A stretch of DNA of 24,000 bases, from positions 60,065 through 84,064 of the forward strand of contig JAUYCX010000015.1 in assembly GCA_030692045.1 (NCBI GenBank), in the 5' to 3' direction. The notes under the pieces are model-generated. The model was not told the origin of the DNA and ran no database searches. It worked only from the letters and a program-made list of their open reading frames with translations. This document shows positions 7,008-22,534 of this stretch, piece by piece. Within the stretch, counting starts at the first letter, position 1. Each line of letters opens with the position of its first letter. This DNA is from Candidatus Omnitrophota bacterium. Its GTDB lineage: Bacteria > Omnitrophota > Gorgyraeia > JAUYCX01. Position numbers and translations under genes: made by a program.

Positions 7008-8962
7008 TCCTCTTCTCCGAGTTTCTTTGTGGCTTGTACCTTGGCAATAATGGTTTGGGCAATCTTTGTTGGAACCTGCTCTAAATGAGAAAATTTCATA
7101 GAATAAGAAGCCCTGCCACCTGTAAAAGACCTAAGGTCTGTTGCATAAGTAAACATCTCTACCAGAGGCACCTGTGCCTTGACTACCTGAAGTTTACCTT
7201 TAGTATCCATTCCCATAATGCGTCCCCGACGGGAATTTAAATCTCCAGAAATATGTCCCATAAATTCATCGCTAACTACCACATCTACATCCATAATTGG
7301 CTCTAAGAGCACTGGGCCGGCTTCCAGCTCAGCTTTACGTAAAGCCATTCTTCCGGCAATCTGAAAAGCGATATCCGAAGAATCAACTTGATGAAAAGAG
7401 CCGTCAAATAAAATTACCTTAAAGCCTACCAGCGGGTAGCCGGCTAAAATGCCATTTTGCATTGCCTGCCTTACGCCCTTTTCAACTGAAGGAATATAAT
7501 TACGCGGTATTGCTCCGCCAAATATTTTATCTACGAACTCAAAATCGCCGCTGCCTTTAGGCAGGGGTTCAATTTCAATCCAGACATCTCCGTATTGACC
7601 GCGGCCTCCGGATTGTTTTTTATACTTTCCTTGCGCCTTAGCAGATTTGGTAATAGTTTCTTTGTAGGAAACCTTGGGCGTGTCTAACTCAACTTCAACG
7701 TTGAATCTACGTTTCAAACGTTCAACCATTACATTGAGGTGTAAATCGCCAATGCCCGAAATAATTAATTCCTTGGTTTCTTGGTCTCGAGTGGTTTTAA
7801 ATGTGGGGTCTTCGCAAGATAATTTATTGAGGCTGGTGGAAATTTTCTCTTCATCCTGACGGGATTTTGGCTTGACTGAAGAGGAAATTGCTGGTTCAGG
7901 AAAAATTATGGGAGCAAACTCTACAGGGTCTTTCTCGTCGGCCAATGTATCATTGGTTGTTGTATCTTTTAATTTGGATAAAGCAACTATATCGCCGCAG
8001 ACTGCTTCATTAACTGACCTTTGTTCCTTTCCCTGCAACACATAAACTTGTCCAATGCGTTCTTTAGCAGATTTATTGACATTAAATAAGCTGGTATTTG
8101 AAATAAGCCTGCCTCTAAAGATTCTAAACAGCGTCAGTTGGCCTACATATGGGTCGGCTATGGTTTTAAAAACAAAGGCGCAAAATGCTCCATCCTCAGA
8201 TGGTACAATTTCTTTTTCCTCTTTAGAATTGGGATTAAGCCCTTTTAGCTGGGTCCGCTCCACGGGGTTGGGTAGATATTTTACAATTGCATCGAGTAAT
8301 TCTTTTATGCCTTTGTCAGTTGCGCTTGAACCACTTATTATAGGAAAAATTTTTGCCTGAATAACTGCCTGACGAAGTGCAGAAATTACTTCTTCTTCTG
8401 AAAGGCTGCCGGTTTCTAAATATTTCTCCAATAATTTGTCGTCGGTTTCTGCAACAGCTTCAATTAATTGTGGAGAATTTAACGAATCGAGTACAACTGC
8501 CTTCGGGGAGAGATTATCTTTAATCTCTAAAACTAATTTGTTAAAATCTGCTCCCTCCTTATCCATCTTATTTACAAAGAAAATTCTCGGTAGGTTTAAG
8601 TCTTCTAACATATTAAAGACACTTTCAGTGCCTACCTCAATTCCAGAAATAGCATCAATAACTAAAATCGCTGCATCTACTGCCCTAATAGAAGAAATAA
8701 CCTCACCGATAAAATCAGCATATCCGGGTGTGTCAATTATTTGTAACTGGCAACCTTGATATTGAGCTATCAGAATACTTGAACTAATTGAGATTTTTCT
8801 TTCTATCTCGTCTGGACTATAATCACTTAGGGTGTTGCCCTCGGCAATTGTGCCTTTTCGAGAGGTGGTGCCGCTTACAAAAAGAAGGCTTTCTGCTAAT
8901 GAGGTTTTGCCTGATTGGGCATGGCCAACAAGAAAAAAAACGCGCTTTTGTAAGGCAACCAT
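7004..8962 (-). CDS. Elongation factor G paralogue (translational GTPase)
   Basis: 652 aa. G1 GHAQSGKTS, G3 DTPGYADF, G4 NKMD. EF-G domains III-V are present, including VPLVEMFTYATDLRSFTGGRASYSMKFSHLEQVP. The G1 motif differs from the canonical AHIDAGKTT. Confidence 0.85.
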   Translation of the reverse strand: MVALQKRVFFLVGHAQSGKTSLAESLLFVSGTTSRKGTIAEGNTLSDYSPDEIERKISISSSILIAQYQGCQLQIIDTPGYADFIGEVISSIRAVDAAILVIDAISGIEVGTESVFNMLEDLNLPRIFFVNKMDKEGADFNKLVLEIKDNLSPKAVVLDSLNSPQLIEAVAETDDKLLEKYLETGSLSEEEVISALRQAVIQAKIFPIISGSSATDKGIKELLDAIVKYLPNPVERTQLKGLNPNSKEEKEIVPSEDGAFCAFVFKTIADPYVGQLTLFRIFRGRLISNTSLFNVNKSAKERIGQVYVLQGKEQRSVNEAVCGDIVALSKLKDTTTNDTLADEKDPVEFAPIIFPEPAISSSVKPKSRQDEEKISTSLNKLSCEDPTFKTTRDQETKELIISGIGDLHLNVMVERLKRRFNVEVELDTPKVSYKETITKSAKAQGKYKKQSGGRGQYGDVWIEIEPLPKGSGDFEFVDKIFGGAIPRNYIPSVEKGVRQAMQNGILAGYPLVGFKVILFDGSFHQVDSSDIAFQIAGRMALRKAELEAGPVLLEPIMDVDVVVSDEFMGHISGDLNSRRGRIMGMDTKGKLQVVKAQVPLVEMFTYATDLRSFTGGRASYSMKFSHLEQVPTKIAQTIIAKVQATKKLGEEE

Positions 8963-8980
8963 TTAGTTTCCTTTCTTAAA

Positions 8981-9024
8981 TACACAGATAAACACAGATT
9001 AAAAGATACGGATTAACACAGATA
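8981..9024. repeat. About 10-nt-period repeats built on ACACAGAT
   Basis: tacacagata aacacagatt aaaagatacggatt aacacagata. Located in the spacer upstream of the EF-G-like start. Confidence 0.85.
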
Positions 9025-9055
9025 TGAAAATAGACTCTTTCAAAGCTCCCATACA

Positions 9056-9580
9056 CTATTTCTTTAACGCCTTAATAATCTCTTTTAGAAACGCAGGTAA
9101 ATCCTCAGGCTTTCTGGATGTAATAAGATTTGCGTCAACTACAACTTCCTTGTCTATATATTTTGCTCCTGCGTGGATAATATCGTCTTTAATGGCGAAA
9201 AAGCAAGTAGCGGTCTTGCCCTTTAAGATATCTGCAGAGGCCAAAACCCAGCCGCCATGGCAAATTGATGCCACAACCTTTCCAGAATTAAACAAATCTT
9301 GCACAAAATTGATAACCTTCGGATACCGACGTAAAATATCAGGGGCATAACCACCGGGAATAACTACTGCGGAAAAATCTTTAGCATCCACCTCATCAAT
9401 TGAACTATCTACATTAATCTCATATCCTTCCTTGCTTTTATATGAATTTTTTTGCCCTGTACCTAAAGAAACTGCTTTAAAGCCCTCTTCCTTTAATCTT
9501 AAAATAGGATACCACACCTCAAGAACTTGATATTGGTCCTCAACTAAAACAGCAATTTTTTGGGAGTATTTACTTTCCAT
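9056..9580 (-). CDS. DJ-1/PfpI family protein (type 1 glutamine amidotransferase-like)
   Basis: 174 aa. Nucleophile elbow ASICHGGWVLA and a VVIPGG motif, with typical PfpI length. Confidence 0.85.
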   Translation of the reverse strand: MESKYSQKIAVLVEDQYQVLEVWYPILRLKEEGFKAVSLGTGQKNSYKSKEGYEINVDSSIDEVDAKDFSAVVIPGGYAPDILRRYPKVINFVQDLFNSGKVVASICHGGWVLASADILKGKTATCFFAIKDDIIHAGAKYIDKEVVVDANLITSRKPEDLPAFLKEIIKALKK

Positions 9581-9590
9581 AAATCAAGTC

Positions 9591-10085
9591 CTATTTCTTC
9601 AACAAACCTTGCAATTTCAAAAGGTGTTTATTTTCCTCGCCAATAAGCCATCTCAAATCTTTTTTGGTTTGTTGTTCTTTAGTATTTAACAAACAGGCTT
9701 CATAAAAGGAAATAGAATTGTTTTCAATCTTTACACCTAACCTTATTGCTTTTTCTTTATTTGTTAGGGCTTCATTAAGCGAAGCGACAGCATTAAAGGG
9801 ATAAAAAACCTTTGTGTCCACATAATCAAAAATAGAATCTTCCTCAAAGCCATCATCCAAGTTCTGTTTTGCTTCAAGAAGCTTTTCCTCAAATAGCTTA
9901 AGGTGCGCTTTTTCTTCTAAAAGTAAGAATTTCATTATTTCGTTTGTCGCCTCGTCAAAATTCTGTTTTAATAATTTGCCATAAAATTCAATTCCCTCAC
10001 TTTCAATCTTACGCGCAATCTTATAAGCCTCGATGGAATTAAAATCGGTTATCCTGATTTTGCCTTCTAAATAATCTATCTTCAT
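9591..10085 (-). CDS. Ferritin-like / rubrerythrin-type diiron four-helix-bundle protein
   Basis: 164 aa with two E...ExxH half-sites: ESEGIEFY...LEEKAH and IENNSISFY...GEENKH. Confidence 0.65.
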   Translation of the reverse strand: MKIDYLEGKIRITDFNSIEAYKIARKIESEGIEFYGKLLKQNFDEATNEIMKFLLLEEKAHLKLFEEKLLEAKQNLDDGFEEDSIFDYVDTKVFYPFNAVASLNEALTNKEKAIRLGVKIENNSISFYEACLLNTKEQQTKKDLRWLIGEENKHLLKLQGLLKK

Positions 10086-10244
10086 GAATACCCTCCTTAT
10101 GTTTTAGAAGAATTTTAACGAGTGGGATACATTTTGAATAAAACAACCTTCACTCACTCCTTAATAATTATTTCATAAGGGGATTATTTGGGTGGGTTAG
10201 CTTAATTTGAATTAAGGGATTAAAAAAAGTGCTTTTGGCTAAAG

Positions 10245-10442
10245 CTAAACAGGTTTTACGCTTGCAGCTTGAAGTCCTTTGGGTGAATTCTTTACTTCAA
10301 ATTCAACTTCCTGTCCTTCAGTCAAGGCAGTGACATCACCGATTAAAGCTGATTTATGCACAAACACATCTTTACCGTCGTCGGTTGTCAAAAAGCCATA
10401 GTTCTTTTTATCATTGTACCACTTGACCTTACCTCTTACCAC
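10245..10442 (-). CDS. csp: Cold-shock protein, CspA family
   Basis: 65 aa. GKVKWYNDKKNYGFL and DVFVHKSAL nucleic-acid-binding motifs. GTG start 7 nt after AGGAGG. Confidence 0.95.
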   Translation of the reverse strand: MVRGKVKWYNDKKNYGFLTTDDGKDVFVHKSALIGDVTALTEGQEVEFEVKNSPKGLQAASVKPV

Positions 10443-10587
10443 CTCTTCGCCTCCTTTTCTCTGATGGTTTAGAATAATAACGCCTCTCTTTACACTCGTA
10501 AAGAAAACCCTCTTTTTGACATTGGCGTTTAAAGAATCTCATCGCCTTCTCAAAATTGTTTTTATCATGGATTTTTACCTCTGCCAT
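10429..10587 (-). CDS. rpsU: 30S ribosomal protein S21
   Basis: Below the track cutoff. My translation is MAEVKIHDKNNFEKAMRFFKRQCQKEGFLYECKERRYYSKPSEKRRRRGGKR (52 aa), which matches the S21 pattern (..V.V..N..FE.A.R.FKR.C.K.G.L.E...R..Y.KPS.KR..). Its 3' end overlaps the csp GTG start by 14 nt. Confidence 0.85.
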   Translation of the reverse strand: MAEVKIHDKNNFEKAMRFFKRQCQKEGFLYECKERRYYSKPSEKRRRRGGKR

Positions 10588-10645
10588 AGTTTTTAATTTT
10601 CGCCCCCAATCTTGTCTCTTTTTTATTCAGCTGCGTAATTGATTT

Positions 10646-10673
10646 ATTATAACTTACCAAAAAATAATGTAAA
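10646..10673 (-). promoter_or_regulatory. Candidate sigma-70 promoter for rpsU-csp
   Basis: The minus strand reads TTTACA, a 16-nt spacer, then TATAAT, about 60 nt upstream of the rpsU ATG. AT-rich background raises the false-positive risk. Confidence 0.4.
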
Positions 10674-10686
10674 TATATTTTTCAGC

Positions 10687-11034
10687 CTAAATTTCTGCTT
10701 CCTTAATTAACCTGCGGTAATATTCTCTACACTCATGACAAGTATTCTTATCCTTATCCCACTTGGGATGGTCTTTTTTTATTAAGTTAATTATATATTC
10801 CTCACTTTTAATATGGGTTAAAGCAACCCTTTCGTCGATTTCTCTTTCGCATATCTGACAGCGGTATTTTCCCGGCGTGTCAGACTCTATTGCCGAATCT
10901 GTCTCTGTCCTTGAATCAGCGCATTTATTGCAAATATCTGGATTGCCCTCTGAAGTGGATACTTTAAAAACTGTTTTAGCAACCTTGCCTAAAAATCCAT
11001 CAAGAGGCACATTACATCTTGCACAGCGGCGCAT
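10687..11034 (-). CDS. Hypothetical zinc-ribbon protein (four CxxC pairs)
   Basis: 115 aa containing CARC, CNKC, CQIC and CHEC. Confidence 0.6.
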   Translation of the reverse strand: MRRCARCNVPLDGFLGKVAKTVFKVSTSEGNPDICNKCADSRTETDSAIESDTPGKYRCQICEREIDERVALTHIKSEEYIINLIKKDHPKWDKDKNTCHECREYYRRLIKEAEI

Positions 11035-11056
11035 TTATAACCTCCTTAATAAGCAG

Positions 11057-11243
11057 ATAACTTACGGAGCGAATGAAATGAGCGACGTAAGTTATAGCGT
11101 CTATCATTTACTTATCTATCAGCGTCTGCGAATTAATCCCGAAGCCTATCCCGAAAATATCGAAGAGATTTTCGGGATGTTTAGGCGAGGGACAAATTCA
11201 GCCAACAAACTTACGTTCGACTTACGTCTCCGTAAGTTTGGGC
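11057..11243. repeat. Three-hairpin palindromic module (copy C), homologous to 6163-6308
   Basis: HP1 11057-11095: ATAACTTACG/CGTAAGTTAT with a loop containing GAATGAAATGA. HP2 11130-11199: GAATT..ATCCCGAAAAT/ATTTTCGGGAT..AATTC with loop ATCGAAGAG. HP3 11201-11243: CAAACTTACG/CGTAAGTTTG. HP1 and HP3 are inverted copies of each other (both contain AACTTACGGAG....CGTAAGTT). Confidence 0.85.
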
Positions 11244-11248
11244 TTCAT

Positions 11249-11605
11249 TTAACCTAATTTATCAATCTTGGCAGCTAAAATAAAATCATTTTCAGACAAA
11301 CCGCCAATAGCATGCGTGGTAGCTGTAAGCTTCACCTTGTTATAATTAATCAAAATTGTAGGGTGATGGCCTTCTTGCTCGGCAATCTTTGCCACATTAT
11401 TTACAAAATCAAGGGAAGCTGAGAAATTCTTGAATTTAAATTCTTTTCTTATTTTGTTACCTTCTACCAATTCCCAGCCTGAAATCTGTGTTAAGAATTT
11501 ATTTGCCTCATCTAAAGTTAATGGCGGCATACCGCCTTCGCAGGGCTTACATTTTTTAGAAGAAAGGTCTATTTCGCAGGTTTTACCTATGTTTTTATCT
11601 TCCAT
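11249..11605 (-). CDS. Pterin-4-alpha-carbinolamine dehydratase (PCD/DCoH family)
   Basis: 118 aa. The EGHHPTILINYNKVKLTATTH core is typical of PCD, as is GWELVEGNKIRKEFKFKNF. Confidence 0.85.
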   Translation of the reverse strand: MEDKNIGKTCEIDLSSKKCKPCEGGMPPLTLDEANKFLTQISGWELVEGNKIRKEFKFKNFSASLDFVNNVAKIAEQEGHHPTILINYNKVKLTATTHAIGGLSENDFILAAKIDKLG

Positions 11606-11723
11606 TTCTACCTTATTTTGGTTTCTTTTTAGAAAGACTTTTTTAATTGTTTGATTAGCTTCATCATAACATAATAAAAATTAAGCGTCAATAAAAATAC
11701 CTTGCCCTTTAAGGCGAGAATTT

Positions 11724-13121
11724 TCATTCTAATTCGCACTCTTCGTCTTTTTGCGGTAAATAAGCCGCAAATCCTGAATCTTTAAGATTAGCCGTGAACG
11801 CCTCAGACTGATCTAAGTCACCGTGAACAATAAATATTTTCTTAAGATTTCCATTGGAAGACCTAACATAATTCAATAAATCATCTTTATCGGCATGTCC
11901 ACTAAAAGCATTTATTATAGAAACCTCTGCTTTTAATTCATAATCTTCGCCAAATATCCTAACAACTGGCTCTTTCTCTACAATCCTCTTGCCCAAAGTA
12001 TTCTGCGCCATATAACCTACCACCAAAATTGTATTTTTGGGATTGGAAATGTTGTTTTTTAAATGATGTAAAATTCTGCCGGATTCGCACATTCCAGAAC
12101 CAGCAATTATTATCATAGGAGATGCATCCTTATTTAATCTTTTTGATTCCTCAACCTTTTTAATATAGGTAATGCGCTCTTCTGGAAAAGGGTCAATTCC
12201 TTTATTGAATAACCCTTGAGTCTTTTTGTCTAAATAATCTTTGTGATGCCTAAAGACTTCTGTAATATTTATTGCCAAGGGGCTGTCTAAATAAATGGGA
12301 ATAGAGGGGAGTTTATTTTCTTTGATTAATTCATTCAAAAAGAAAAGCACTTCCTGAGTTCTTTCCAAGGCAAAGGATGGGATAATAACTTTACCGCCTC
12401 TGGCAATTGTTTGGTTAACACTAACCATTAACTTTGCTTTTGCCTCCTCAATAGAAGGGTGAAACCTGTTGCCATAAGTGCTTTCAATAACCAGATAATC
12501 CAAATCTTTAAGAATTACGGGGTCATTTAAAAGCGGCAAGTTGGGCCTGCCTAAATCCACAATATAACCCAGTTTTAGTTTTCTTTGTTTTTCTTTTATT
12601 TCTAAAAGCGTAAGTGCCGAGCCTAAAATATGCCCCGCATCAAAAAATGTACACTCTACATCTTTACTCAATCTGATTTTCTCAAAATATGATATGCCGC
12701 GGAAATTCTTTAAAGCGCGAAGGGCCTCTTTTTCTGTATAAAGCGGTTTTCTTGCCGGCAAATTTTTTCTGCGGTTAATCTTGTTTACAAATTCAATATC
12801 CTCTTCTTGAATTTTTCCACTGTCTGAAAGCATCAGCCGGCACAAATCCTTTGTTGCCTTTGTAGTAAATACCTTACAATGTAGGCCCCTTTTTATGAGC
12901 GTTGGGATATTACCAGAGTGATCAATATGGGCATGGGAAAGTACAAGGCCGTTTATCTTTGCAGGATTATAAGAAAACTTGGAATTAACCGCATAATATT
13001 CGTCGCGATGGCCATAGAAAATTCCTGCATCTAAAAGGATTTGGGATTTGTCGGTTTCTACAAGATGGTTAGAGCCAGTAACTGTTCTAACGCCGCCGCA
13101 GAACTTTATACGAATGGACAT
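11724..13121 (-). CDS. MBL-fold beta-CASP family ribonuclease (CPSF/RNase J-like)
   Basis: 465 aa. HAHIDHSG (HxHxDH), then a beta-CASP region and a C-terminal SGHAD...VHGD pattern. Confidence 0.85.
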   Translation of the reverse strand: MSIRIKFCGGVRTVTGSNHLVETDKSQILLDAGIFYGHRDEYYAVNSKFSYNPAKINGLVLSHAHIDHSGNIPTLIKRGLHCKVFTTKATKDLCRLMLSDSGKIQEEDIEFVNKINRRKNLPARKPLYTEKEALRALKNFRGISYFEKIRLSKDVECTFFDAGHILGSALTLLEIKEKQRKLKLGYIVDLGRPNLPLLNDPVILKDLDYLVIESTYGNRFHPSIEEAKAKLMVSVNQTIARGGKVIIPSFALERTQEVLFFLNELIKENKLPSIPIYLDSPLAINITEVFRHHKDYLDKKTQGLFNKGIDPFPEERITYIKKVEESKRLNKDASPMIIIAGSGMCESGRILHHLKNNISNPKNTILVVGYMAQNTLGKRIVEKEPVVRIFGEDYELKAEVSIINAFSGHADKDDLLNYVRSSNGNLKKIFIVHGDLDQSEAFTANLKDSGFAAYLPQKDEECELE

Positions 13122-13127
13122 TATTAA

Positions 13128-13160
13128 GTATCGCGTATCGCGTAACAGGTATCAGGTATC
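13128..13160. repeat. Tandem heptamers GTATCGC GTATCGC GTAACAG GTATCAG GTATC
   Basis: Direct reading. The array fills most of the 42-nt spacer between the kamA stop and the beta-CASP start. Confidence 0.9.
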
Positions 13161-13163
13161 TTT

Positions 13164-14351
13164 TTAAGCTGTCTCAAGGTAGGTGTAAATCTTGCTGCGG
13201 TAGTTTCTTAAGGTGTATTTACCTTTGTCTTGCGAAATAACATAGTTAGGCCCAACTGGAATCTTACCGCCTCCGCCTGGCGCATCAATCACATATGTGG
13301 GTATGGCGTATCCGGTTGTGTGGCCGCGTAACTTTTCAATAATATTTATTCCTACCGCAACAGGGGTTCTGAAATGGCTTGTGCCTTTTGCCGGATCGCA
13401 CTGATAAATATAATACGGCCGAACGCGCATCTTTAAAAGCTCATGCATCAATTTTTTCATTATAAAGGGGCGGTCATTGATGCCTTTTAAAAGCACAGTT
13501 TGGCTGCCTAAAGGCATGCCGTTATCCGAGAGTAAATCACAGGCAAGCTTACACCTTCTGGTAACTTCTTTGGGATGATTAAAATGAATGCTAATCCAAA
13601 GCGGAGAATATTTTTTAAGCATTGCCGCAAATTGCTCGGTAATTCTTTGGGGCAGGGTCACAGGCAAGCGCGTGCCTATTCGTAAGAATTCTACATGGGG
13701 AATTGAACGAATGGTTTTTAAAATATTTTCCAGAACATCGTCTTCTAACATCAAGGGGTCTCCACCAGAAATCAGTACATCGCGAATCTTTTTATTGGAA
13801 CGGATATATTCAAAAGCCGCATCCAGTTTATGAGGCGCCGCGGCTTGCTTTTTTTCTCCGACTAATCTTCGTCTTGTGCAGTGGCGGCAATACATTGCAC
13901 ACTGCTCTGTCACTAAAAGTAAAACCCTGTCAGGATAACGATGCACAAGTCCGGGAGCTGGGGAGTCTCTATCTTCAGCGCAAGGGTCAACTAACTCGTG
14001 GGGGGCATAGATAAATTCTGCCTCTAAGGGAACAGCTTGTCTACGAATAGGGCAATTAAAATCTTCTGGATCAATAAGGCTTGCCCAGTAAGGAGTGATT
14101 GCCATGGAAAGCTTTCCATTGCAACGTCTAATACCCTCTTCCTCTTGAGGGGTTAAGCGGATAATCTTGGAAAGCTCTTCTTTTGTACGAATACGGTTTC
14201 TTATCTGCCAATGCCAATCTTCCCAATCTAAAGTTGAAACATCCTTATAGGCATTCGGCAAATATAAGCTAAATTTTTTCTGCTGGGTACCTAAATTAAC
14301 TGTTGGTGATTGTAACTGTGTCTCTCGCTCCAAGAGTACAGTCTCGTTCAA
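13164..14351 (-). CDS. kamA: Lysine 2,3-aminomutase (radical SAM, PLP-dependent)
   Basis: 395 aa. CAMYCRHCTRRR CxxxCxxC cluster, WEDWHWQIRNR N-terminal motif, SGGDPL, YIYQCD and VIDAPGGGGK. TTG start preceded by AAAGGAG. Overlaps the upstream ATP-grasp gene by 56 nt. Confidence 0.9.
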   Translation of the reverse strand: MNETVLLERETQLQSPTVNLGTQQKKFSLYLPNAYKDVSTLDWEDWHWQIRNRIRTKEELSKIIRLTPQEEEGIRRCNGKLSMAITPYWASLIDPEDFNCPIRRQAVPLEAEFIYAPHELVDPCAEDRDSPAPGLVHRYPDRVLLLVTEQCAMYCRHCTRRRLVGEKKQAAAPHKLDAAFEYIRSNKKIRDVLISGGDPLMLEDDVLENILKTIRSIPHVEFLRIGTRLPVTLPQRITEQFAAMLKKYSPLWISIHFNHPKEVTRRCKLACDLLSDNGMPLGSQTVLLKGINDRPFIMKKLMHELLKMRVRPYYIYQCDPAKGTSHFRTPVAVGINIIEKLRGHTTGYAIPTYVIDAPGGGGKIPVGPNYVISQDKGKYTLRNYRSKIYTYLETA

Positions 14352-15357
14352 GCGTCTTTTCTCCTTTCTTATAGCGCGAAATTGCGCTGGAAATTATATA
14401 ATTAATTACGTCGGGATAATCCATACCCGCAGCCTTTGCCATTAAGGTAAGATTGCTCTCATCCGGGTCTAAACCCGGCAGCGGATTTACCTCCAGAACA
14501 TAAGGCACATTATCACAACTTAAACGAATATCTGTGCGCGACATATCCAGACAGCCTAAGGCGTGATGTGCCTTTAAAGCGACCTCTTTGATTGTCTTTT
14601 CAATCTGTGGCCCCAGCCTGGCCGGACAATAAAAGGTGGGATTTAACCCCATCTCAACATTTCCTTGATATTCCTTCATCCGCCAGGAATAAAAAAACTC
14701 TCCGCTTTTTGCACAATTTGTAAAATCTATCTCTAAGATGGGCAGAATTGAAGTCTTACCATTTTCTAAAATTCCCACGGTTAATTCCTTGCCCTGAATA
14801 AATTCCTCAACCAGAGCCTCTTGTTTATAAAGCTGGAGTATCTTTTCTATCTCTTCATACAATCTTTTTTCGTTATAGACCACATTGGAAACCGAAATGC
14901 CCTTGGCAGAGCCCTCGCGGTTAGGCTTTACAATCAAGGGAAATTTTAAATCGGGATTCAAACTTTCATGTTTTTTATAAAAAAGTTGGAAATTAGGCGT
15001 TAGGATATTTTCTGAAAGCATTATCTTTTTAGTTAGCGCTTTGTTCAAGGCAAGCGCCAGGGTCGTAACTCCCGAACCAGTATAAGGCACATTTAAAATA
15101 TCCAAAATCGCTGGAACATAGGATTCCCTTAAATTTGAGCCTTTGCCTTCAGCGATATTAAAAACAATATCTGTTTTATGGCTCTTAAAATAAGCATACA
15201 AATCCTCATCCGCCTCAACCAGACTTACATTGTGGCCATTCTTCTTAATTGCCTGGGCAATTGAGAAAACTGTTTTTTCCGAGTCAAACTCCGAAAAGTA
15301 ATCCGCGGGCTTATGCATATCCTTCTTTTTTAAATTAAAGACGAGCGTTATATCCAT
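14296..15357 (-). CDS. D-Ala-D-Ala ligase-family ATP-grasp enzyme (non-canonical), paralogue 2
   Basis: 353 aa. FPLIVKPNREGSAKG, LVEEFIQGKELTV and LEVNPLPG ATP-grasp motifs. Lacks the Ddl N-terminal GG.S.E..VS motif. Confidence 0.8.
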   Translation of the reverse strand: MDITLVFNLKKKDMHKPADYFSEFDSEKTVFSIAQAIKKNGHNVSLVEADEDLYAYFKSHKTDIVFNIAEGKGSNLRESYVPAILDILNVPYTGSGVTTLALALNKALTKKIMLSENILTPNFQLFYKKHESLNPDLKFPLIVKPNREGSAKGISVSNVVYNEKRLYEEIEKILQLYKQEALVEEFIQGKELTVGILENGKTSILPILEIDFTNCAKSGEFFYSWRMKEYQGNVEMGLNPTFYCPARLGPQIEKTIKEVALKAHHALGCLDMSRTDIRLSCDNVPYVLEVNPLPGLDPDESNLTLMAKAAGMDYPDVINYIISSAISRYKKGEKTLERDCTLGARDTVTITNS

Positions 15358-16350
15358 TTAATTCAAATGATACCTTTCTAACGCTGAATTTAAAATCCGG
15401 TTTATCAGTTCTTCGTAAGTTTTATCCATTTGTTTGGCAATAGGGTTTAATACATCTGCGCTTGAGAGAGAAGGCAGGGGATTTACCTCTAAAACAAATG
15501 GCCTGCCAGAATTATCTACGCGGAAATCCACACGGCCTAAATCTCTGCACTCTAAAACCTGGTAACTCTTAAGTGCTAATTCCTGAATTATTGTGTTAAG
15601 TTCTTTACTTATACGCGCCGGACAAACATACTCTAATCGTCTAGAGTGGATACGGGCAAAGGTATAGAACCTGTCTTCTAATTTTAGTTTGCCGTCAATC
15701 TTAATCTGTACAACTGGCAAAACCTGGGGTTCTTCATTTCCGATTATGGCAACCGTATACTCAGAGCCGCTGATAAACTCCTCAACCAGCGCTGGCTGAT
15801 GATATGTGTTAACAATAAAATCTACCTGTTTTTTAAAATCATCCATATTCTCAACGCGCGAGGCATCAGAAAGGCCCTTAGAAGAACCCTCGTAGCGCGG
15901 CTTAACTATTAAAGGAAATTTCAAATGGTCTAAATCATCCAAAGTATCTCCATCCTTTGCCTCCATAAAACGAGGAGTGGGAATTTTCTCAGCCAGAAAT
16001 ATTTTTTTAGTAAGTAGTTTATCCAGGGTAAGGGCAAGCGTCAGCCCATCTGAACCAACATAAGGGATTCCTTTCATCTCTAAAATTACAGGGACTTGTG
16101 ATTCACGATTACGGCCATAAAGCCCTTCGGAAATATTAAAAACAATATCGACTTTCAGCTCATCAAGTTTATCCAAAAGATTATGGACATTGCCAATTTT
16201 TATGACTTTGTGTCCCCCTCTTTCTATTGCCTTGGCAATTACCCCAATGGTAGAAGGAGAATCAAATTCAGCATTAGCATCTCGAGGGTCTCCCTGTTTA
16301 AATTTGTAATCCGTTTTTAAATCAAAGGTTAATCCGACTACTTTACCCAT
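15358..16350 (-). CDS. D-Ala-D-Ala ligase-family ATP-grasp enzyme (non-canonical), paralogue 1
   Basis: 330 aa. FPLIVKPRYEGSSKG, LVEEFISGSEYTV and LEVNPLPS. Clearly paralogous to 14296-15357, with zero-nt spacing to it. Confidence 0.8.
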   Translation of the reverse strand: MGKVVGLTFDLKTDYKFKQGDPRDANAEFDSPSTIGVIAKAIERGGHKVIKIGNVHNLLDKLDELKVDIVFNISEGLYGRNRESQVPVILEMKGIPYVGSDGLTLALTLDKLLTKKIFLAEKIPTPRFMEAKDGDTLDDLDHLKFPLIVKPRYEGSSKGLSDASRVENMDDFKKQVDFIVNTYHQPALVEEFISGSEYTVAIIGNEEPQVLPVVQIKIDGKLKLEDRFYTFARIHSRRLEYVCPARISKELNTIIQELALKSYQVLECRDLGRVDFRVDNSGRPFVLEVNPLPSLSSADVLNPIAKQMDKTYEELINRILNSALERYHLN

Positions 16351-16380: not shown

Positions 16381-16475
16381 AACACGAATTTATACTAACC
16401 CAACACGAATTCTCACGAATAATCCTATCAAATAATTCGTATAAATTTGTGTGTAATTCGTGTGAATTTGTGTTA
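16381..16475. promoter_or_regulatory. Cluster of about 7 direct and inverted ACACGAATT / AATTCGTGT motifs; candidate operator array
   Basis: aACACGAATTtatac..aACACGAATTctCACGAATAa..tAATTCGTATaAATTTGTGTgtAATTCGTGTgAATTTGTGTt. Located 30-125 nt upstream of the first ATP-grasp gene. Confidence 0.4.
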
Positions 16476-16497: not shown

Positions 16498-16534
16498 ATT
16501 AAAATAAAAAAGGACACCCCCCTCCTTGTGTCCT
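16498..16534 (-). terminator. Candidate intrinsic terminator downstream of the NRAMP gene
   Basis: The minus strand reads AGGACAC-aaggagggggg-GTGTCCT followed by TTTTTTATTTT. It lies about 260 nt after the stop codon, which is rather far. Confidence 0.45.
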
Positions 16535-16794
16535 CTTAAAAGCAACCAAATTTTTCCAACTTAACTTATTTAACCCCCTTCGGCGTTAATTGATTTACTT
16601 ATTTTTAATTACAATTTTATTTTTTCATATACAGATATGTTTGTCAAGGTTTTTTAGAAAATTTTTTATTTTTTTATTCTAAGATATCGACGAATAAAAT
16701 AAATCTTTGATTTTCTATATACAAAAATGATTTTTTAAGTTTAATTCTTTCAGAAAGAGATTATTAAAATAATTTTAAAACTTGGAAAGGAATA

Positions 16795-18042
16795 TTAACT
16801 GATAGGAAAAAGGTAAGAAATTATCATAAATGAGGTTAGGATAATCATAATTACAACAGTTAACCAAGAAATAATATTATAGATTTTGGAATTAATATGC
16901 TCTCCCATAATATCCTTATTATTTACTAAAAACAACATAAATATTAGTATAAATGGCAGTAAAATTCCATTTCCAACCTGAGAAATATACATCATATCCA
17001 AAAGTGGAAAGTTGGGTAGCAACACTGAGCCTGCACCAATAATAATTAAGGCAGTGTACAAACCAAAAAACTGTGGCGCCTCTTTAAATCTTTTATCCAC
17101 TCCTGTCTCCCAGCCCATACCCTCGCAGAAGCTATAAGCAGTTGAAAGTGGTAAAATTGAAGCGGCGAATAAAGAGGCATTAAATAAACCAAAGGCAAAA
17201 AGCCACGAGCAATATTTTCCTGCCAGGGGTTTTAAAGCAAGCGCGGCGTCTTTAGCAGTCTCAATTCTTATGCCTGCCTTAAACAATGTGGCAGCGCATG
17301 CCACCACAATAAAAAAAGCAATTACGACTGCCAAGATACAGCCGCCAATTACATCCCAGCGTGCCAACTTATATTCGCGAACCTTTATACCCTTTTCTAC
17401 AATTGAAGACTGCAAATAAAACTGCATCCAGGGAGCAATGGTTGTTCCCGCAATAGCTACAAGCATCACAAAATATGACGGCTTAAATTTGAATTTTGGA
17501 AAAACCACTTCTTTAGTAATTTCTTGCCAAGGAGGTTGAGCTAAAAATCCTGAAACAACATAAGCAATATAAAATACACAGGCAGTTAAAAAAACCTTCT
17601 CTACACTCTTATAAGTTCCTTTTACTACCAGCCACCAAACAAAAATTCCTGCCAGCGGCACAGAAATATATTTACTTACCCCAAAAATCTCTAAACTGGC
17701 TGCAACTCCGGCAAATTCAGCCACGATATTTCCTAAATTTACTGCAAACAGTGCCAGCATCGTATAAAAGGTAACCTTTACGCCAAAATTTTCGCGAATT
17801 AAATCTGCCAAGCCCTTGCCAGTCACAACCCCCATACGCGAGCAAATCTCTTGAATTACTACAAGTGCAAGGGTTATAGGTATCAAAAACCAGATAAGGC
17901 TATAACCAAAGTGTGCGCCTGCCAGAGAATAGGTGGTTATTCCGCCAGCATCATTATCCACATTGGCAGTGATAATTCCCGGCCCCATTACTGCTAAGAA
18001 AATCAGAATATTACGTAATAATTTATTGCGACGGCGTCTCAT
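16795..18042 (-). CDS. NRAMP/SLC11-family transporter with non-canonical metal site (NRMT-like)
   Basis: Multi-TM ORF. The TM1 motif is VDNDAGGITT (DPGN in Mn/Fe NRAMPs) and the TM6 motif is GTTIAPWMQ (GATVMPHN in Mn/Fe NRAMPs). I prefer the ATG at 18042, which forms an ATGA overlap with the upstream stop, over the track's TTG at 18069. Confidence 0.8.
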   Translation of the reverse strand: MRRRRNKLLRNILIFLAVMGPGIITANVDNDAGGITTYSLAGAHFGYSLIWFLIPITLALVVIQEICSRMGVVTGKGLADLIRENFGVKVTFYTMLALFAVNLGNIVAEFAGVAASLEIFGVSKYISVPLAGIFVWWLVVKGTYKSVEKVFLTACVFYIAYVVSGFLAQPPWQEITKEVVFPKFKFKPSYFVMLVAIAGTTIAPWMQFYLQSSIVEKGIKVREYKLARWDVIGGCILAVVIAFFIVVACAATLFKAGIRIETAKDAALALKPLAGKYCSWLFAFGLFNASLFAASILPLSTAYSFCEGMGWETGVDKRFKEAPQFFGLYTALIIIGAGSVLLPNFPLLDMMYISQVGNGILLPFILIFMLFLVNNKDIMGEHINSKIYNIISWLTVVIMIILTSFMIISYLFPIS

Positions 18043-19331
18043 TTTACTTTCTTTCTTAATCTTCTCCAAGCCAAAGGAATAATTCTGGATAAAATATCAT
18101 CTACAGTAATTACGCCCTGCATAATGCCATCTTTATTAACCACAGGTATTGCAGAACATTTATATTTATCCATTAAATAGGTTACCTCTTTAACGCTATC
18201 ATCGGTATGCACAAAGATATATTTGGGAAACCTCGTCTCCAAAATTAAACTGGCAGGATTGGCGGCTATAATCCTCCTTAAAGAGGTTATGGCAATTAAG
18301 CGATTTTGTTCATCTATAATATAAATGTAATAAATTGTTTCGGCTTGGGAGGTGAATTCCTTTAATTTTTCAAGCGCCTGTTGAACAGTGGCATTTTTGT
18401 CGATTGTAATATATTCGGTTGTCATTAGGCCTCCAGCGGAATCGCTGGAATATCCCAAAAGCAAAGATAATTTTTTTGATTTATTTGTTTCCATAAGAAT
18501 CAGCAAATTATCTACCTTTTCTTTGGTTAAACTTAATAAAAAGTCTGCGGCTTCATCTGCAGGCATGCCTTCTAAAATTGAAACTGCTTCTTTGTCGTCT
18601 AACTTATCCAATATCTCTTGTTGAACCTCTAAATTAAATTCGCCAAAAACCCTCTGCTTCAAAGCTGTATCCAGAGACTTAAATAAACTTACCCTCTGTA
18701 GCCTATCCAAATCTAACATTATCTCTTTTAGCTCAGGAGGAGGGATTTGTGAAAGTTTCTGGCGGGCAATATCCAAACGGATAACATTTTTTGTGCGGCC
18801 AATTGAAAGCGGCTGGGTGTGTTTCCAAGAAATTAAATCCTCTCGGGATAAATAATTTGCTTTGGGCTTAATCAAGCGAACAAAAAAGTCTACAATATTT
18901 TCCCAGCCCAAACGACGCACCAAACCGCGCAGTCCCACTTCCACATGCGCAAGATATAATTGATGGTCAACCCTTAAATGATGAATGTCATTTACCCTAA
19001 CTACCTTCTGATTAAAGGTATCTACTACCTGCTGGTCTAAGAAATCTATATTTATAGAAAAATCGTGTTTGGGACAATTTTTTTGAAATTTTAAATTACT
19101 TAAAGGAACCTTCAATCTTATTGTGCCGTCAAATTCCTCTACATTTTCCCAGGGACATTCAGAGAAATTTTTCTTAAAGCCAATTCCCTTTACAATTATT
19201 AACGCAACCACCTTAGGATAAATTTCATCACTCATTTTTAAGATAAGGTCGTAGAGTTTGCCTACATATTTGTTGTTAATATCGATTATATCTTTTTTAA
19301 GCAGTTCCGAATAATAGACGAATATTTTCAT
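18039..19331 (-). CDS. Soluble PRC-barrel / MgtE N-terminal domain / CBS-pair protein (no transmembrane MgtE domain)
   Basis: 430 aa. N-terminal PRC-barrel-like segment (DINNKYVGKLYDLIL...). MgtE-N-like helices (ILDKLDDKEAVSILEGMPADEAADFLLSLTKEKVDNLL). GGLMTTEYITI, then two CBS motifs ending IPVVNKDGIMQGVITVDDIL. Confidence 0.75.
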   Translation of the reverse strand: MKIFVYYSELLKKDIIDINNKYVGKLYDLILKMSDEIYPKVVALIIVKGIGFKKNFSECPWENVEEFDGTIRLKVPLSNLKFQKNCPKHDFSINIDFLDQQVVDTFNQKVVRVNDIHHLRVDHQLYLAHVEVGLRGLVRRLGWENIVDFFVRLIKPKANYLSREDLISWKHTQPLSIGRTKNVIRLDIARQKLSQIPPPELKEIMLDLDRLQRVSLFKSLDTALKQRVFGEFNLEVQQEILDKLDDKEAVSILEGMPADEAADFLLSLTKEKVDNLLILMETNKSKKLSLLLGYSSDSAGGLMTTEYITIDKNATVQQALEKLKEFTSQAETIYYIYIIDEQNRLIAITSLRRIIAANPASLILETRFPKYIFVHTDDSVKEVTYLMDKYKCSAIPVVNKDGIMQGVITVDDILSRIIPLAWRRLRKKVK

Positions 19332-19332: not shown

Positions 19333-19989
19333 TTATTTGCTTTTTACAACGCTAATCCTTAAACACAACTTATTTATCCTGCAAATACTACATAAAGCCG
19401 TAACTGGCTTACAAATATTCTGTCCCCAGGTAACTAAAAGCGTATTATACTCTTTCCAGAATTTCTTTGGCAATTTTTTTCTTAAAGCCATTTCTGTCTC
19501 AAGGGGGCTATATGTTTTTACAAAACCTAAGCGGTTAGAAATGCGATGCACATGGGTATCCACACAAACGCCCAATTTATTAAAGCCTTCAGTTAAAACC
19601 AAATTTGCAGTTTTTCTCCCTACGCCCTTTAAAGTTAAAAGCGTATCTAAATCATCAGGAACCCTGCCATTAAATTTGTTAACTAAATCACAACAGATGG
19701 AAAGAATATTTCTTGCTTTAACCCTGTAAAACCCCACAGGAAAAATTGCCTTTTCAATTCTTTTGGTTGTAAGATTAAGCATGTCATAGGGATTATCTGC
19801 TAACTTAAACAACCTCTGGCTTGCACCTTTAGTAGTTAAGTCTTTTGTGCGCAAACTTAAAATGCAGGAAATTAAGACACGGGAGGGACTCTGAGTTGCT
19901 TTACTAATATCAGTAACAATTGGCGTAATAAATTTTTTTGTCTCTCGAGAAAGGATTTGGATAATCTTAGTTATGTCTGGTTTTTTCAT
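19333..19989 (-). CDS. nth: Endonuclease III-family DNA glycosylase/AP lyase (HhH-GPD with 4Fe-4S loop)
   Basis: 218 aa. HhH motif LLTLKGVGRKTANLVL, catalytic-region VDTHVHRISNRLG, and C-terminal CxxxxxxCxxCxxxxxC (CKPVTALCSICRINKLC). Confidence 0.85.
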   Translation of the reverse strand: MKKPDITKIIQILSRETKKFITPIVTDISKATQSPSRVLISCILSLRTKDLTTKGASQRLFKLADNPYDMLNLTTKRIEKAIFPVGFYRVKARNILSICCDLVNKFNGRVPDDLDTLLTLKGVGRKTANLVLTEGFNKLGVCVDTHVHRISNRLGFVKTYSPLETEMALRKKLPKKFWKEYNTLLVTWGQNICKPVTALCSICRINKLCLRISVVKSK

Positions 19990-21094: not shown

Positions 21095-21275
21095 GTAGAT
21101 TTAATATAATACTTGTTGAGGTTAGTCAATTTTTGGCTAACTAAAAAGGTAAACCAATCTTCCTTAAAGATAAAGGAAGACCCCGGAGTATTGTCGGGGG
21201 CCGTAAGGATGGGGCACAAAGCTAAAGGGTCCGCCAAATAAATTTGGCGAGACAGCCAGCTGCCAACAGGATAAT
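21095..21275 (+). promoter_or_regulatory. Structured 5' leader, candidate riboswitch or attenuator sensor domain (class unassigned)
   Basis: Hairpins at 21157-21179 (TCTTCCTT/AAGGAAGA) and 21180-21200 (CCCCGG../..CGGGGG), and an irregular 52-nt hairpin at 21213-21264 with apical stem CGCCAAA-TAAA-TTTGGCG. AUGGG at 21209-21213 can pair with CCCAU in the 5' arm of the terminator. Confidence 0.4.
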
Positions 21276-21316
21276 AAAAAACCCATTCTTTAGGCAAATG
21301 AATGGGTTTTTGTTTT
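21276..21316 (+). terminator. Intrinsic terminator immediately upstream of the pilin SD and start codon (expression platform)
   Basis: AAAAACCCATTC-loop-GAATGGGTTTTTGTTTT, followed directly by the AAAGGAG SD and the ATG at 21329. No upstream plus-strand gene exists for it to terminate. Confidence 0.7.
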
Positions 21317-21328
21317 AAAGGAGTGGCG

Positions 21329-22534
21329 ATGAAAAAAATTGCTATAAGAAACGAGGGTTTCACTTTGGTTGAAGTATTAGTTTCCACAGTGATTGCCGTA
21401 TTTATGGCAATTATTCTGTTGGGTTTGTTTCTGGTGGGCAGAAATTCCTGGTCAACAGGCGCAGTTTATATTGACCTGCAACAACAAGCGCGCCGGGCAA
21501 TGGATGCAATGGTTTGGGAATTAGCGCAAACTGGTATTGACTTAACTCAAGCAGTTGAGGTTAAGATACTTCCTTGCTCAAACAGCGATAACGAACCTCC
21601 AGAAGCCATCTGTTCAGGAGAAATGGTTTCCTTCAGTATACCAATAAGCACACCAGAGGACATTGGTTATACCATCTATAAACCAGATGGCACAATTAAG
21701 TGGGGTGATAAGGAAACTAGCCCTCTCAACCCTCTGGAACAAGCGGGAACAGAGGGCCGCACAATTAATTTTTATGTAGCAAAGCCTCCCTCAACTGATC
21801 CCTCAAAAACACTGGTTAGGCGAAGTTGGATTCAAACAGGCGTTGGCTGTTTCTTAGCCGGAACCACTATTTTGATGGCTGATTCAACACTTAGGCCTAT
21901 TGAACAGCTTAAAACAGGCGATGAGATTATGGCTTTTGATGAAGACTCAAAAGCCCTTGTTAAAGATAGGGTTAGCAAATTTTTTCAACACACGGCAGAT
22001 GAATATTTAATTATTAACCATAAAATTAAGCTTACAGCCAATCACCCTGTTTATTCTAATGGTAAGTGGTTAGAAATAGGCGTATTAAAAAAAGGAGATG
22101 CTTTGTTCAACTCTGAAGGCAAGCCAGAAATAATCAAAGATATAAAGAAGATTCGGGAAAAAGTTAAGGTCTACAATATCGAGGTTAATCCCTATCATAA
22201 TTATTTTGCCGGTGGGATATTGGCGCATAATAAACCTTTGCCTCCAGAAGAAATCCCCCGACCGCCTTGCGAGTGGTGCAAATTATGGGATGATTTTCTG
22301 TTTGTTAAAGAGGCCTTTGCAGTTGGAGGTGGAGGGGGAGCTACTTATGATATTACAAGGAAATATTTAGCATCTGATATTACTGAGGTAAATTTTGCAG
22401 GCTTTACAAGCTCAGGCGGTTCTACTGACACAAACCCAGATTTAATTGAAATTACTGTTACGGCAGAAAAAACAGCCCTTGCGGGAGGCAATATAACTTT
22501 ATCTCTAAAATCCCGAGTGACCTTGAAGAATTAA
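21329..22534 (+). CDS. Type IV pilin-like minor (pseudo)pilin carrying an internal Hint/intein-like domain
   Basis: Prepilin class-III signal MKKIAIRNEG/FTLVEVLVSTVIAVFMAIILLGL. PilW/GspJ-like segments (QQQARRAMDAMVWELAQTG at the N-end, ITLSLKSRVTLKN at the C-end). I chose the ATG at 21329 (SD AAAGGAG) rather than the track start at 21302, which lies inside the terminator hairpin. Confidence 0.85.
   Translation: MKKIAIRNEGFTLVEVLVSTVIAVFMAIILLGLFLVGRNSWSTGAVYIDLQQQARRAMDAMVWELAQTGIDLTQAVEVKILPCSNSDNEPPEAICSGEMVSFSIPISTPEDIGYTIYKPDGTIKWGDKETSPLNPLEQAGTEGRTINFYVAKPPSTDPSKTLVRRSWIQTGVGCFLAGTTILMADSTLRPIEQLKTGDEIMAFDEDSKALVKDRVSKFFQHTADEYLIINHKIKLTANHPVYSNGKWLEIGVLKKGDALFNSEGKPEIIKDIKKIREKVKVYNIEVNPYHNYFAGGILAHNKPLPPEEIPRPPCEWCKLWDDFLFVKEAFAVGGGGGATYDITRKYLASDITEVNFAGFTSSGGSTDTNPDLIEITVTAEKTALAGGNITLSLKSRVTLKN
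21848..22231 (+). other. Mini Hint domain (128 aa; bacterial intein-like) embedded in the pilin
   Basis: CFLAGTTILMADS (Cys1, block A), KLTANHPV (TxxH, block B), VYNIEVNPYHNYFAGGILAHN (blocks F/G, terminal HN). The next residue is Lys. There is no endonuclease insert. Confidence 0.8.

Follow-up and report, generated by a model that had tools for sequence, protein, structure and literature searches.

To our knowledge, only a handful of fates have been described for beta-lysine: acetylation to an osmolyte, modification of elongation factor P (EF-P), fermentation, and use in antibiotics made by nonribosomal peptide synthetases. In the AblA/AblB pathway to N-epsilon-acetyl-beta-lysine, found in methanogens and green sulfur bacteria, a small operon begins with a lysine 2,3-aminomutase of the TIGR03820 type, and the next enzyme, the GNAT acetyltransferase AblB, masks the charge of beta-lysine by an amide bond. 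In the EpmB/EpmA pathway, an aminomutase of the KamA family feeds beta-lysine to an ATP-dependent ligase. The present work concerns a cassette of three genes in a stretch of 24,000 nt (hereafter, the window) from Candidatus Omnitrophota (assembly GCA_030692045.1, contig JAUYCX010000015.1, forward-strand positions 60,065-84,064), in which two genes for ATP-grasp ligases resembling D-alanine-D-alanine ligase (Ddl), g1 and g2, are joined to a gene for a lysine 2,3-aminomutase, KamA. Where the AblA/AblB operon has an acetyltransferase, this locus has two ATP-grasp ligases and, since it is these and not a GNAT that would follow KamA, a peptide-type amide rather than an acetamide is expected. The reading favored here, which we hold to be reasonably probable, is that KamA makes beta-lysine and that the ligases, by forming amide bonds, build it into a short peptide or an oligomer.

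The three genes lie on the same strand in the order g1, g2, KamA (Table 1). The ATG of g2 abuts the TAA stop of g1 with no nucleotide between them, while the TTG start of KamA, preceded at 9 nt by an AAAGGAG Shine-Dalgarno sequence, lies within g2, so that the two genes overlap by 56 nt. The coordinates, the spacing and the overlap reproduce the tight unit proposed in a first-pass annotation of this DNA. At NCBI the KamA product is recorded as MDP2938628.1, with the same 395 residues and the name lysine 2,3-aminomutase, and the g1 product is 100% identical to a protein of a Candidatus Omnitrophota metagenome-assembled genome (MAG). The g2 product is MDP2938629.1, a protein of 340 residues named "ATP-grasp domain-containing protein" whose start lies 13 codons downstream of the one taken here; the longer form was accepted because its first beta-strand and NLK motif align throughout the family. 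Likewise, the N-terminal extension of KamA is real, since a comparable extension is encoded at a related Omnitrophota locus (L002), where the start codon is ATG and the gene does not overlap another.

It can be predicted with high confidence that KamA converts free L-lysine to beta-lysine. The protein aligns to the lysine 2,3-aminomutase (LAM) of Clostridium subterminale (2A5H) over 360 residues without a gap (34-393 on 8-367, E = 1.5e-149), and the CxxxCxxC motif of the [4Fe-4S] cluster (C151/C155/C158 for C125/129/132 of 2A5H), the pyridoxal 5'-phosphate (PLP) lysine K337 (K363, in GGGGK), the carboxylate-binding Arg134 (R160) and both Asp293 (D319, in YQCD) and Asp330 (D356, in VIDAPGGGGK) are kept. 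Asp293 and Asp330 distinguish lysine from glutamate 2,3-aminomutase; in the 2A5H structure they reportedly hold the epsilon-ammonium of lysine, and R134 the carboxylate. Because the equivalents of all three residues are present, free L-lysine would be the substrate and beta-lysine the product. KamA also passes the AblA equivalog TIGR03820 (532.6 bits against a cut-off of 525.4), narrowly because about 57 C-terminal model positions are absent from it, and fails the models for glutamate 2,3-aminomutase (475 against 650), arginine 2,3-aminomutase (418 against 600) and EpmB (TIGR03821; 240 against 369). The cluster, the two aspartates, the PLP lysine and the assignment to lysine rather than glutamate had all been put forward in the first-pass annotation and stand; what had escaped it is that the protein is a short form. 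C268 of 2A5H is replaced by R294, and the chain stops at the equivalent of residue 369, so that the zinc ligands C375/C377/C380 are missing. The same short form, devoid of the zinc C-terminus, is common to all the module-linked KamA proteins aligned.

The ligases g1 and g2 are 41% identical to each other and match the Pfam family Dala_Dala_lig_C (PF07478) with E-values of 1.5e-36 and 7.6e-35, respectively. Their closest solved relatives are Ddl and Van ligases, and matches to RimK and TTL are marginal. Nevertheless, among the curated Ddl models (NF002378, TIGR01205 and equivalogs) the best scores are only 194.5 bits for g1 and 190.2 bits for g2 against the cut-off of 243 of the broadest one, and both proteins fall far under the cut-offs of the remaining NCBIfam Ddl and Van models. 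An AlphaFold model of g1 (predicted local distance difference test 84, predicted template modeling score 0.87), in which only the lid at residues 221-236 is disordered, has its best Foldseek match in DdlB of Pseudomonas aeruginosa (8evz, template modeling score 0.78, 27% identity). A search of 1.84 billion cluster representatives placed the ligases in a separate large subfamily with 1,079 representatives at E <= 1e-30; the best 150 of these all score above 205 bits, compared with about 105-112 bits for PDB Ddl enzymes against g1.

In order to define how this subfamily differs from Ddl, the domains of 46 g1, 46 g2, 40 KamA-fused and 70 twin-fusion ligases were compared with Escherichia coli DdlB, using a reference sequence confirmed to be identical to 1IOV. 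The equivalents of K97, K144, E180, E187, R255, D257, E270 and N272, which serve ATP/Mg2+ and acyl-phosphate binding, are invariant in all four groups, and so is that of Glu15, the residue of Ddl that binds the ammonium group of its activated acyl donor, D-Ala. A long insertion relative to Ddl precedes the Glu15 equivalent. Tyr216, by contrast, is gone from every group (Ile or Thr in g1, Glu in g2), Ser281/Leu282 have become Asp/Val in g1 and Ser/Asn in g2, and the position of His63 is an invariant Glu in the MAFFT alignment, with which the strand register of the g1 model agrees. Two types can be recognized: type A, comprising g2, the KamA-fused domain and the C-terminal half of the twin fusions, keeps Gly276 and Ser281, whereas type B, comprising g1 and the N-terminal half of the twin fusions, has Ser at 276 (as in g1 itself) and Asp or Ala at 281. 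Judged by these residues, g1 and g2 are catalytically competent ligases with the Ddl fold that are not Ddl, which bears out the earlier description of them as non-canonical members of the family.

The association of the three genes extends well beyond this window. A metagenome scan with a g2-type profile gave 80 loci at 52-66% identity; KamA lies downstream of g2 on the same strand in all 54 with at least 1.3 kb of downstream sequence, and g1 lies ahead of g2 in all 62 with at least 1.1 kb of upstream sequence, so that the arrangement is not a coincidence. When all flanking open reading frames (ORFs) were clustered, no other real gene family occurred in more than 35 of 92 loci. The trio is present in other Omnitrophota and in Planctomycetia MAGs, the taxonomy of relatives resting on MAG labels, and the flanks of the Planctomycetia locus differ (cytochrome c, TatC, YqeY, dCTP deaminase, and PabB- and PabC-like genes). 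The examination of neighborhood conservation that the first-pass annotation had proposed therefore came out strongly in favor of the linkage, with the trio in about 90 Omnitrophota and Planctomycetia loci and KamA-ATP-grasp fusions in more than 100 protein clusters. EF-G, YchF, S21, PAC2 and PurH were rejected as functional partners, being found in at most 35 of the 92 loci and in neither the Planctomycetia nor the archaeal contexts, and an M20 peptidase near some loci is an ArgE/DapE-type deacylase, probably with a housekeeping role. As a separate observation, a cassette in a 1.19-Mb Omnitrophota contig (L009) has a g2 of 305 residues and a KamA of 339 residues that ends just past YQCD; both lose similarity close to their C-termini, which points to frameshifts, assembly errors or decay.

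The strongest evidence of linkage is provided by gene fusions. KamA and ATP-grasp domains are found fused in both orders, KamA-grasp and grasp-KamA. Among the top 150 representatives there are 37 twin ATP-grasp proteins of the g1-g2 type and three KamA fusions, and a homologue search from one fusion yielded more than 100 clusters of KamA-ATP-grasp proteins of about 700 residues, labeled at NCBI as Thermoplasmatota, Methanocellales, Woesearchaeota, Nanoarchaeota, Spirochaetales and Deltaproteobacteria. P0186, in which D293 is replaced by Q, is the sole exception to the conservation of the D293, D330 and K337 equivalents in the fused KamA domains; AblA is the best-matching model for these domains, at 409-447 bits and thus under its cut-off. 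In a neighbor-joining tree g2 groups with the archaeal KamA-fused domain, and g1 with the domain fused ahead of KamA in P0186. Of the two ligases, g2 has the closest tie to the aminomutase, its archaeal counterpart being part of the same polypeptide as KamA.

The partners of the ligases in other lineages provide hints about what becomes of the product. Several KamA-ligase fusions are accompanied by further ligases, by a GNAT or by an HDAC-GNAT fusion, and one grasp-KamA fusion is followed by an S51 peptidase of the cyanophycinase/PepE-like type (Table 1). The best models for the GNATs of archaeal relatives are the amine N-acetyltransferases PseH, SpeG and RimI, all under their cut-offs, and these proteins are not AblB-like; the S51 peptidase is a distant relative of cyanophycinase (45 bits against a cut-off of 126.6). 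The same grasp-KamA fusion is also flanked by a distant AMP-binding-like protein. Twin fusions of the type B-type A order are common in Myxococcota, including the cultured Anaeromyxobacter dehalogenans, and in Bacteriovoracia, and a Peptidase_S58 gene directly follows the twin ligase in three of three loci, from Anaeromyxobacter, Bacteriovoracia and Myxococcales. It has been reported that the S58 members DmpA and BapA hydrolyze beta-alanyl and beta-peptides, such as carnosine (PMC9235088), and the pairing in cultured organisms looks like a synthetase and a hydrolase for one peptide. Taken together, the family looks like a set of ligases for peptides of beta-amino acids (or diamino acids), whose products would be capped by acetylation or recycled by dedicated peptidases, with KamA apparently providing the beta-amino acid in cis in the branch that is linked to it.

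Two observations on channels were made beside the ligase genes. A small protein with the transmembrane-helix repeat of mechanosensitive channels is encoded just upstream of g1 in 11 loci, and the twin ligase of Bacteriovoracia is preceded, at 1.3 kb, by an MscS-type channel gene. Such mechanosensitive-type neighbors would fit a solute role, for which they are weak evidence.

From these data a two-step pathway can be proposed, in line with the first-pass annotation, which had suggested a beta-lysine-containing peptide that might serve as a solute, an envelope modification or a polyamine-like polymer. In the first step, KamA would carry out the radical S-adenosylmethionine (SAM)- and PLP-dependent 2,3-amino shift that turns free L-lysine into beta-lysine. 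In the second, which is suggested by gene linkage, g1 and g2 would use ATP to form acyl-phosphates and amide bonds, two here and one to three in relatives, giving a short nonribosomal beta-lysine peptide or oligomer. Given that Glu15 is kept and that a Glu occupies the His63 position, the donor is probably beta-lysine, with its free amine and a second cationic group: type A g2 would take it, probably as the acyl-phosphate donor, with the free beta-ammonium on the Glu15 equivalent. Type B g1 would form the other amide bond, for which the acceptor is probably cationic, since g1 has an Asp at the position of S281, where Ddl binds the acceptor carboxylate. Both the acidic donor pocket and the Asp of g1 thus suggest cationic substrates, and the product would be a di- or tripeptide or a short oligo-beta-lysine. 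The activation of a beta-amino acid by an ATP-grasp enzyme has a precedent in carnosine synthase (PMC9235088). The GNAT/HDAC and S58/S51 partners suggest that a peptide or amine is made which is then capped or undergoes turnover. Candidate roles are a nitrogen-rich solute or reserve under turnover control, favored by the peptidase partners, and a polyamine-like cation, favored by the GNAT/HDAC partners and the acidic pockets.

Several points weigh against this reading. The assignment of ligase substrates rests on gene linkage and on residue analogy with DdlB, and residue equivalences in two loops depend on the alignment, as does that of His63, which HMMER pairs with Tyr78 in g1. KamA is devoid of the inter-subunit zinc site and of the C-terminal tetramerization segment of characterized LAM. 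Two Omnitrophota loci (L002 and L003) hold only g1 and KamA, and the Spirochaetales locus a KamA-ligase fusion alone, so that a fixed two-step product would not be universal; moreover, the ligase family is not restricted to beta-lysine, since its Myxococcota members have no KamA nearby. The cassette is not linked to any transporter, regulator protein or gene that would obviously supply an acceptor. Finally, many loci come from records named for groundwater or freshwater ("nzgw", "Hain-H.."), and a role as an osmolyte against salt stress therefore fits poorly.

Among the alternatives, an unlikely one that still deserves attention is that the cassette makes a polymer, a cyanophycin- or streptothricin-like poly- or oligo-beta-lysine that would serve as a nitrogen reserve or polycation, chain extension falling to one ligase and priming or branching to the other. 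The S51 peptidase behind the grasp-KamA fusion and the dedicated S58 peptidase behind the twin ligases would both suit such a product, as would the acidic residues lining the putative substrate sites and the GNAT and HDAC partners, which recall the control of polyamines by acetylation. The S51 match is weak, however, and neither g1 and g2 nor the twin and KamA fusions contain the Mur-ligase-type second domain of cyanophycin synthetase (CphA). In addition, one to three distinct ligase paralogues, depending on the lineage, agree better with a defined number of bonds than with iteration, and no sign of primer or polymer binding is seen in the sequence.

It is considerably less probable that the ligases place beta-lysine on a protein, such as a translation factor or ribosomal protein, in the manner of EpmA/EpmB on EF-P or of RimK tailing. 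EpmB does belong to the KamA family, the cassette is highly conserved in lineages with small genomes, and EF-G, YchF and S21 genes lie near it in Omnitrophota. Yet KamA, which passes the AblA model, falls well below the EpmB cut-off; EpmB forms (R)-beta-lysine and represents a distinct subfamily, EpmA is a lysyl-tRNA-synthetase paralogue and not an ATP-grasp enzyme, and g1 and g2 resemble Ddl rather than RimK or TTL. Moreover, neither efp nor an EpmA-like gene is linked to the cassette in the window, which contains no tRNA-synthetase-like gene, and the translation genes reflect lineage synteny, being present in at most 29 of the 92 loci and missing from Planctomycetia and archaeal contexts. 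Archaea, for their part, use hypusinated aIF5A. Modification of EF-P itself is rejected on model scores and gene context, and the same holds for lysine fermentation: kamDE, kdd, kce and kal genes do not occur among the neighbors of the cassette, either in the window or in the 92 related loci. The ORFs of 100 aa or more that were scanned in the window include no GNAT and hence no AblB-type enzyme. In these respects the earlier proposal that the known fates of beta-lysine employ other enzyme types (AblB, EpmA, kamDE/kdd) is consistent with the content of the window.

There is likewise little to recommend a reversed order, in which the ligases first build a lysine-containing or other peptide that KamA then isomerizes, or the use of another amino acid. 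This would accommodate the scores of the fused KamA domains under the AblA cut-off, the D293 substitution in P0186 and a short KamA C-terminus that differs from that of characterized LAM. On the other hand, the kept equivalents of R134, D293 and D330 lead one to expect free lysine, and the KamA of the window passes the lysine equivalog while it fails the glutamate and arginine models. As for g1 and g2 being ordinary cell-wall D-Ala-D-Ala ligases that merely adjoin KamA, the kinship with Ddl enzymes in sequence and structure and the JGI label of D-alanine-D-alanine ligase given to homologues are outweighed, so that this reading is very improbable, by scores under every Ddl cut-off, the changed equivalents of Y216, S281/L282 and H63, a context in the window with no murB, murC or ftsQ, an invariant KamA linkage, and a KamA pairing that is conserved and even fused in archaea, which have no murein.

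With the beta-lysine peptide pathway retained as the preferred reading, its regulation in Omnitrophota can be considered. In the clade studied here, the cassette is probably expressed from a conserved promoter, followed by a leader with a terminator hairpin at its end. According to an nhmmer profile, the leader element occurs as one copy per locus in 49 loci, always on the strand of g1 and always upstream of it, and it usually stops about 5 nt short of the g1 ATG; it was seen in L008-L012 and in many of L021-L100. A CTTGACA-17-TGnTAAAAA arrangement is kept across 39 aligned leaders, which also share an inverted repeat, ATATTGT...ACAATAT, around the -10 box, a GGRGG box, the TAARTTGRAAAA box and a GGGCTC...GAGCCC terminator. 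In the window the terminator-like hairpin at the end of the leader reads GGACAC..GTGTCC-T6. The inverted repeat shows double changes from G:C to A:T in four sequences, with the hairpin 87% paired; the terminator hairpin and this repeat are the only structures supported, and to a modest degree, as the sequences are closely related. RNAalifold predicted no consensus structure on the MAFFT alignment of the leaders. A known riboswitch is rejected for lack of any matching Rfam family at E <= 1, and a leader peptide is unlikely because the A-run behind the conserved TTG is of variable length (5 or 6 nt) and the reading frames beyond it show no conservation. The leader is a candidate for an attenuator, a riboswitch or an operator complex that belongs to this operon specifically. 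The window also carries, between the terminator of the leader and the start codon of g1, an array of seven AATTCGTG-like 8-mers with a spacing of 10-11 nt, of which the first three are on the minus strand and the following four on the plus strand; the 8-mer occurs in exact form three times in the 24 kb, each time within this array. This array is specific to the window, being absent from 69 related loci, and could represent either an operator peculiar to the lineage or a repeat that was inserted.

The surroundings of the cassette are largely of a housekeeping nature: a Mur-ligase-family gene (probably folC), PurH, YchF, EF-G, DJ-1, rubrerythrin, a pterin dehydratase, a beta-CASP protein of the metallo-beta-lactamase fold, Nramp, an MgtE_N/CBS protein, an endonuclease III-like HhH-GPD glycosylase and PAC2. 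The beta-CASP gene follows KamA after a 42-nt spacer with four copies of GATAC (GATACctGATAC...GATACgcGATAC) and no terminator, and it may be co-transcribed with the cassette; it is not among the flanking families present in at least 10 of the 92 related loci. Upstream, the 430-residue protein with a PRC-barrel, MgtE_N and two CBS domains is devoid of the MgtE channel domain and overlaps the start of the downstream Nramp gene by 31 nt, and it could be a soluble regulatory partner of Nramp. An HhH-GPD glycosylase gene is found 1-7 kb upstream of the cassette both in Omnitrophota and in the Planctomycetia locus, although their other neighbors differ, which could be residual synteny or something more. 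Farther away, a cyclic di-GMP-I riboswitch (43.5 bits against a gathering score of 35) stands directly upstream of the gene for a 410-residue protein with a Hint / pretoxin-HINT domain, whose N-terminus weakly matches the prokaryotic, pilin-like N-methylation motif, at 20.2 bits where the cut-off is 21.2.

Table 1. Positions and composition of the features discussed, in the window and in related loci.
Feature	Locus	Positions	Strand	Remarks
g1, Ddl-like ATP-grasp ligase, type B	window	16350..15358	minus	330 aa, ATG start
g2, Ddl-like ATP-grasp ligase, type A	window	15357..14296	minus	353 aa, ATG start
KamA, lysine 2,3-aminomutase, KamA/AblA type (radical SAM + PLP), short form	window	14351..13164	minus	395 aa, TTG start
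Promoter-like site	window	16619..16647	minus	TTGACA, 17-nt spacer, extended -10 TG-AAAAAT; consensus scan 10/12 plus TG
Conserved 5' leader	window	16502..16579	minus	GGRGG box, TAARTTGRAAAA box, GC hairpin and T-run; nhmmer profile
AATTCGTG-like array	window	16383-16472		
Spacer between KamA and beta-CASP gene	window	13122-13163		
MgtE_N/CBS protein and Nramp	window	16795-19331		
c-di-GMP-I riboswitch	window	21138-21267		
410-aa Hint protein	window	21302-22534		
HhH-GPD gene	window	19333-19989		
HhH-GPD gene	L002	3994-4692		
HhH-GPD gene	L004	4372-5073		
HhH-GPD gene	L009	328-996		
HhH-GPD gene	L010	4310-4930		
g2 and KamA, shortened	L009	8999-11015		
Mechanosensitive-channel repeat protein upstream of g1	L005	2230-2916		
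KamA-ligase fusion + ligase-GNAT fusion	L013			fusion 71% identical to P0233 query; neighboring matches labeled Thermoplasmatota
KamA-ligase fusion + two further ligases	L014			fusion 56% identical to query; Woesearchaeota-labeled matches alongside
KamA-ligase fusion + two further ligases	L015 (Deltaproteobacteria)			
KamA-ligase fusion by itself	L016 (Spirochaetales)			
KamA-ligase fusion + ligase + GNAT	L017 (Methanocellales)			
KamA-grasp fusion + ligase + HDAC-GNAT fusion	L101 (ENA metagenome contig)	7001-12872		HDAC-GNAT fusion 761 aa
grasp-KamA fusion, then S51 peptidase	L102 (JGI metagenome contig)	1024-5196		peptidase after 3 nt
Twin ligase + S58 gene	L018 (Anaeromyxobacter dehalogenans 2CP-1, CP001359; twin ligase at 1,685,397-1,687,583)	8001-11763		no KamA nearby
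Twin ligase + S58 gene	L019			no KamA nearby
Twin ligase + S58 gene	L020			no KamA nearby
MscS-type channel gene	L019	5577-6665		

The families that make up the cassette are known, and it is their combination that would be new, adding an ATP-grasp route to the fates of beta-lysine. The pairing of KamA with ATP-grasp ligases is undescribed in the searchable full-text literature, which excludes subscription-only papers such as the 2009 amidoligase survey, and a survey of archaeal fusions does not mention KamA-ATP-grasp fusions (PMC11237513). The product has been invisible to annotation, as NCBI names the proteins no further than "ATP-grasp domain-containing protein" and "KamA family radical SAM protein". 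Lineages that retain the cassette include Omnitrophota, DPANN archaea and Thermoplasmatota, all three with few or no cultured members and often small genomes, and also Planctomycetia; its product is therefore probably important to the physiology of these organisms. The requirements are small (three genes, lysine, SAM, PLP and ATP), and the twin, KamA-fused and peptidase-linked ligases are candidate beta-amino-acid peptide ligases for biocatalysis. Moreover, the leader may be a new regulatory RNA, whose ligand would reveal the logic of the pathway. A wider picture can be put forward tentatively, with a little less than even confidence: a widespread and undescribed cross-domain pathway, built from KamA and Ddl-like ligases, to a new class of beta-lysine amide, either a defined beta-lysyl peptide or an oligo-beta-lysine polycation, turned over by S58/S51 peptidases or by acetylation and deacetylation, and controlled in Omnitrophota by a new leader RNA that might sense lysine or the product.

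When compared with the remaining described systems, the ligases share with Ddl and Van enzymes the fold, the domain order, the residues for ATP/Mg2+ and acyl-phosphate and the Glu15 equivalent, and they are set apart by sub-cut-off scores, the changes at Tyr216, Ser281, Leu282 and His63, the insertion, and the occurrence of twins and of KamA fusions that reach into archaea. Another related system is carnosine synthase (ATPGD1), an ATP-grasp enzyme that ligates a beta-amino acid to a second amino acid; it is eukaryotic and belongs to another ATP-grasp lineage, whereas here a radical-SAM enzyme would generate the beta-amino acid in situ, in the form of beta-lysine. The likeness extends to degradation, as S58 peptidases of the DmpA/BapA kind cleave N-terminal beta-aminoacyl peptides and an S58 gene follows the Myxococcota twin ligases. 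The Ngg/AsnO pathway, which Sagot and co-workers reportedly described in 2010, is said to make the dipeptide osmolyte N-acetylglutaminylglutamine amide with a fused GNAT and ATP-grasp protein. It recalls the present system in yielding a small charge-masked peptide solute, and the pairing of a Ddl-like ligase with a GNAT in L013 and L017 is reminiscent of it, although its ATP-grasp enzyme is RimK-like and neither an aminomutase nor a beta-amino acid is involved. CphA and cyanophycinase, lastly, offer the parallel of ATP-grasp chemistry, a nitrogen-rich nonribosomal amide and a dedicated peptidase, to which the S51 relative in L102 would correspond; CphA combines one ATP-grasp with one Mur-ligase domain and makes a polymer, whereas the cassette described here has two domains of the Ddl type and none of the Mur type.

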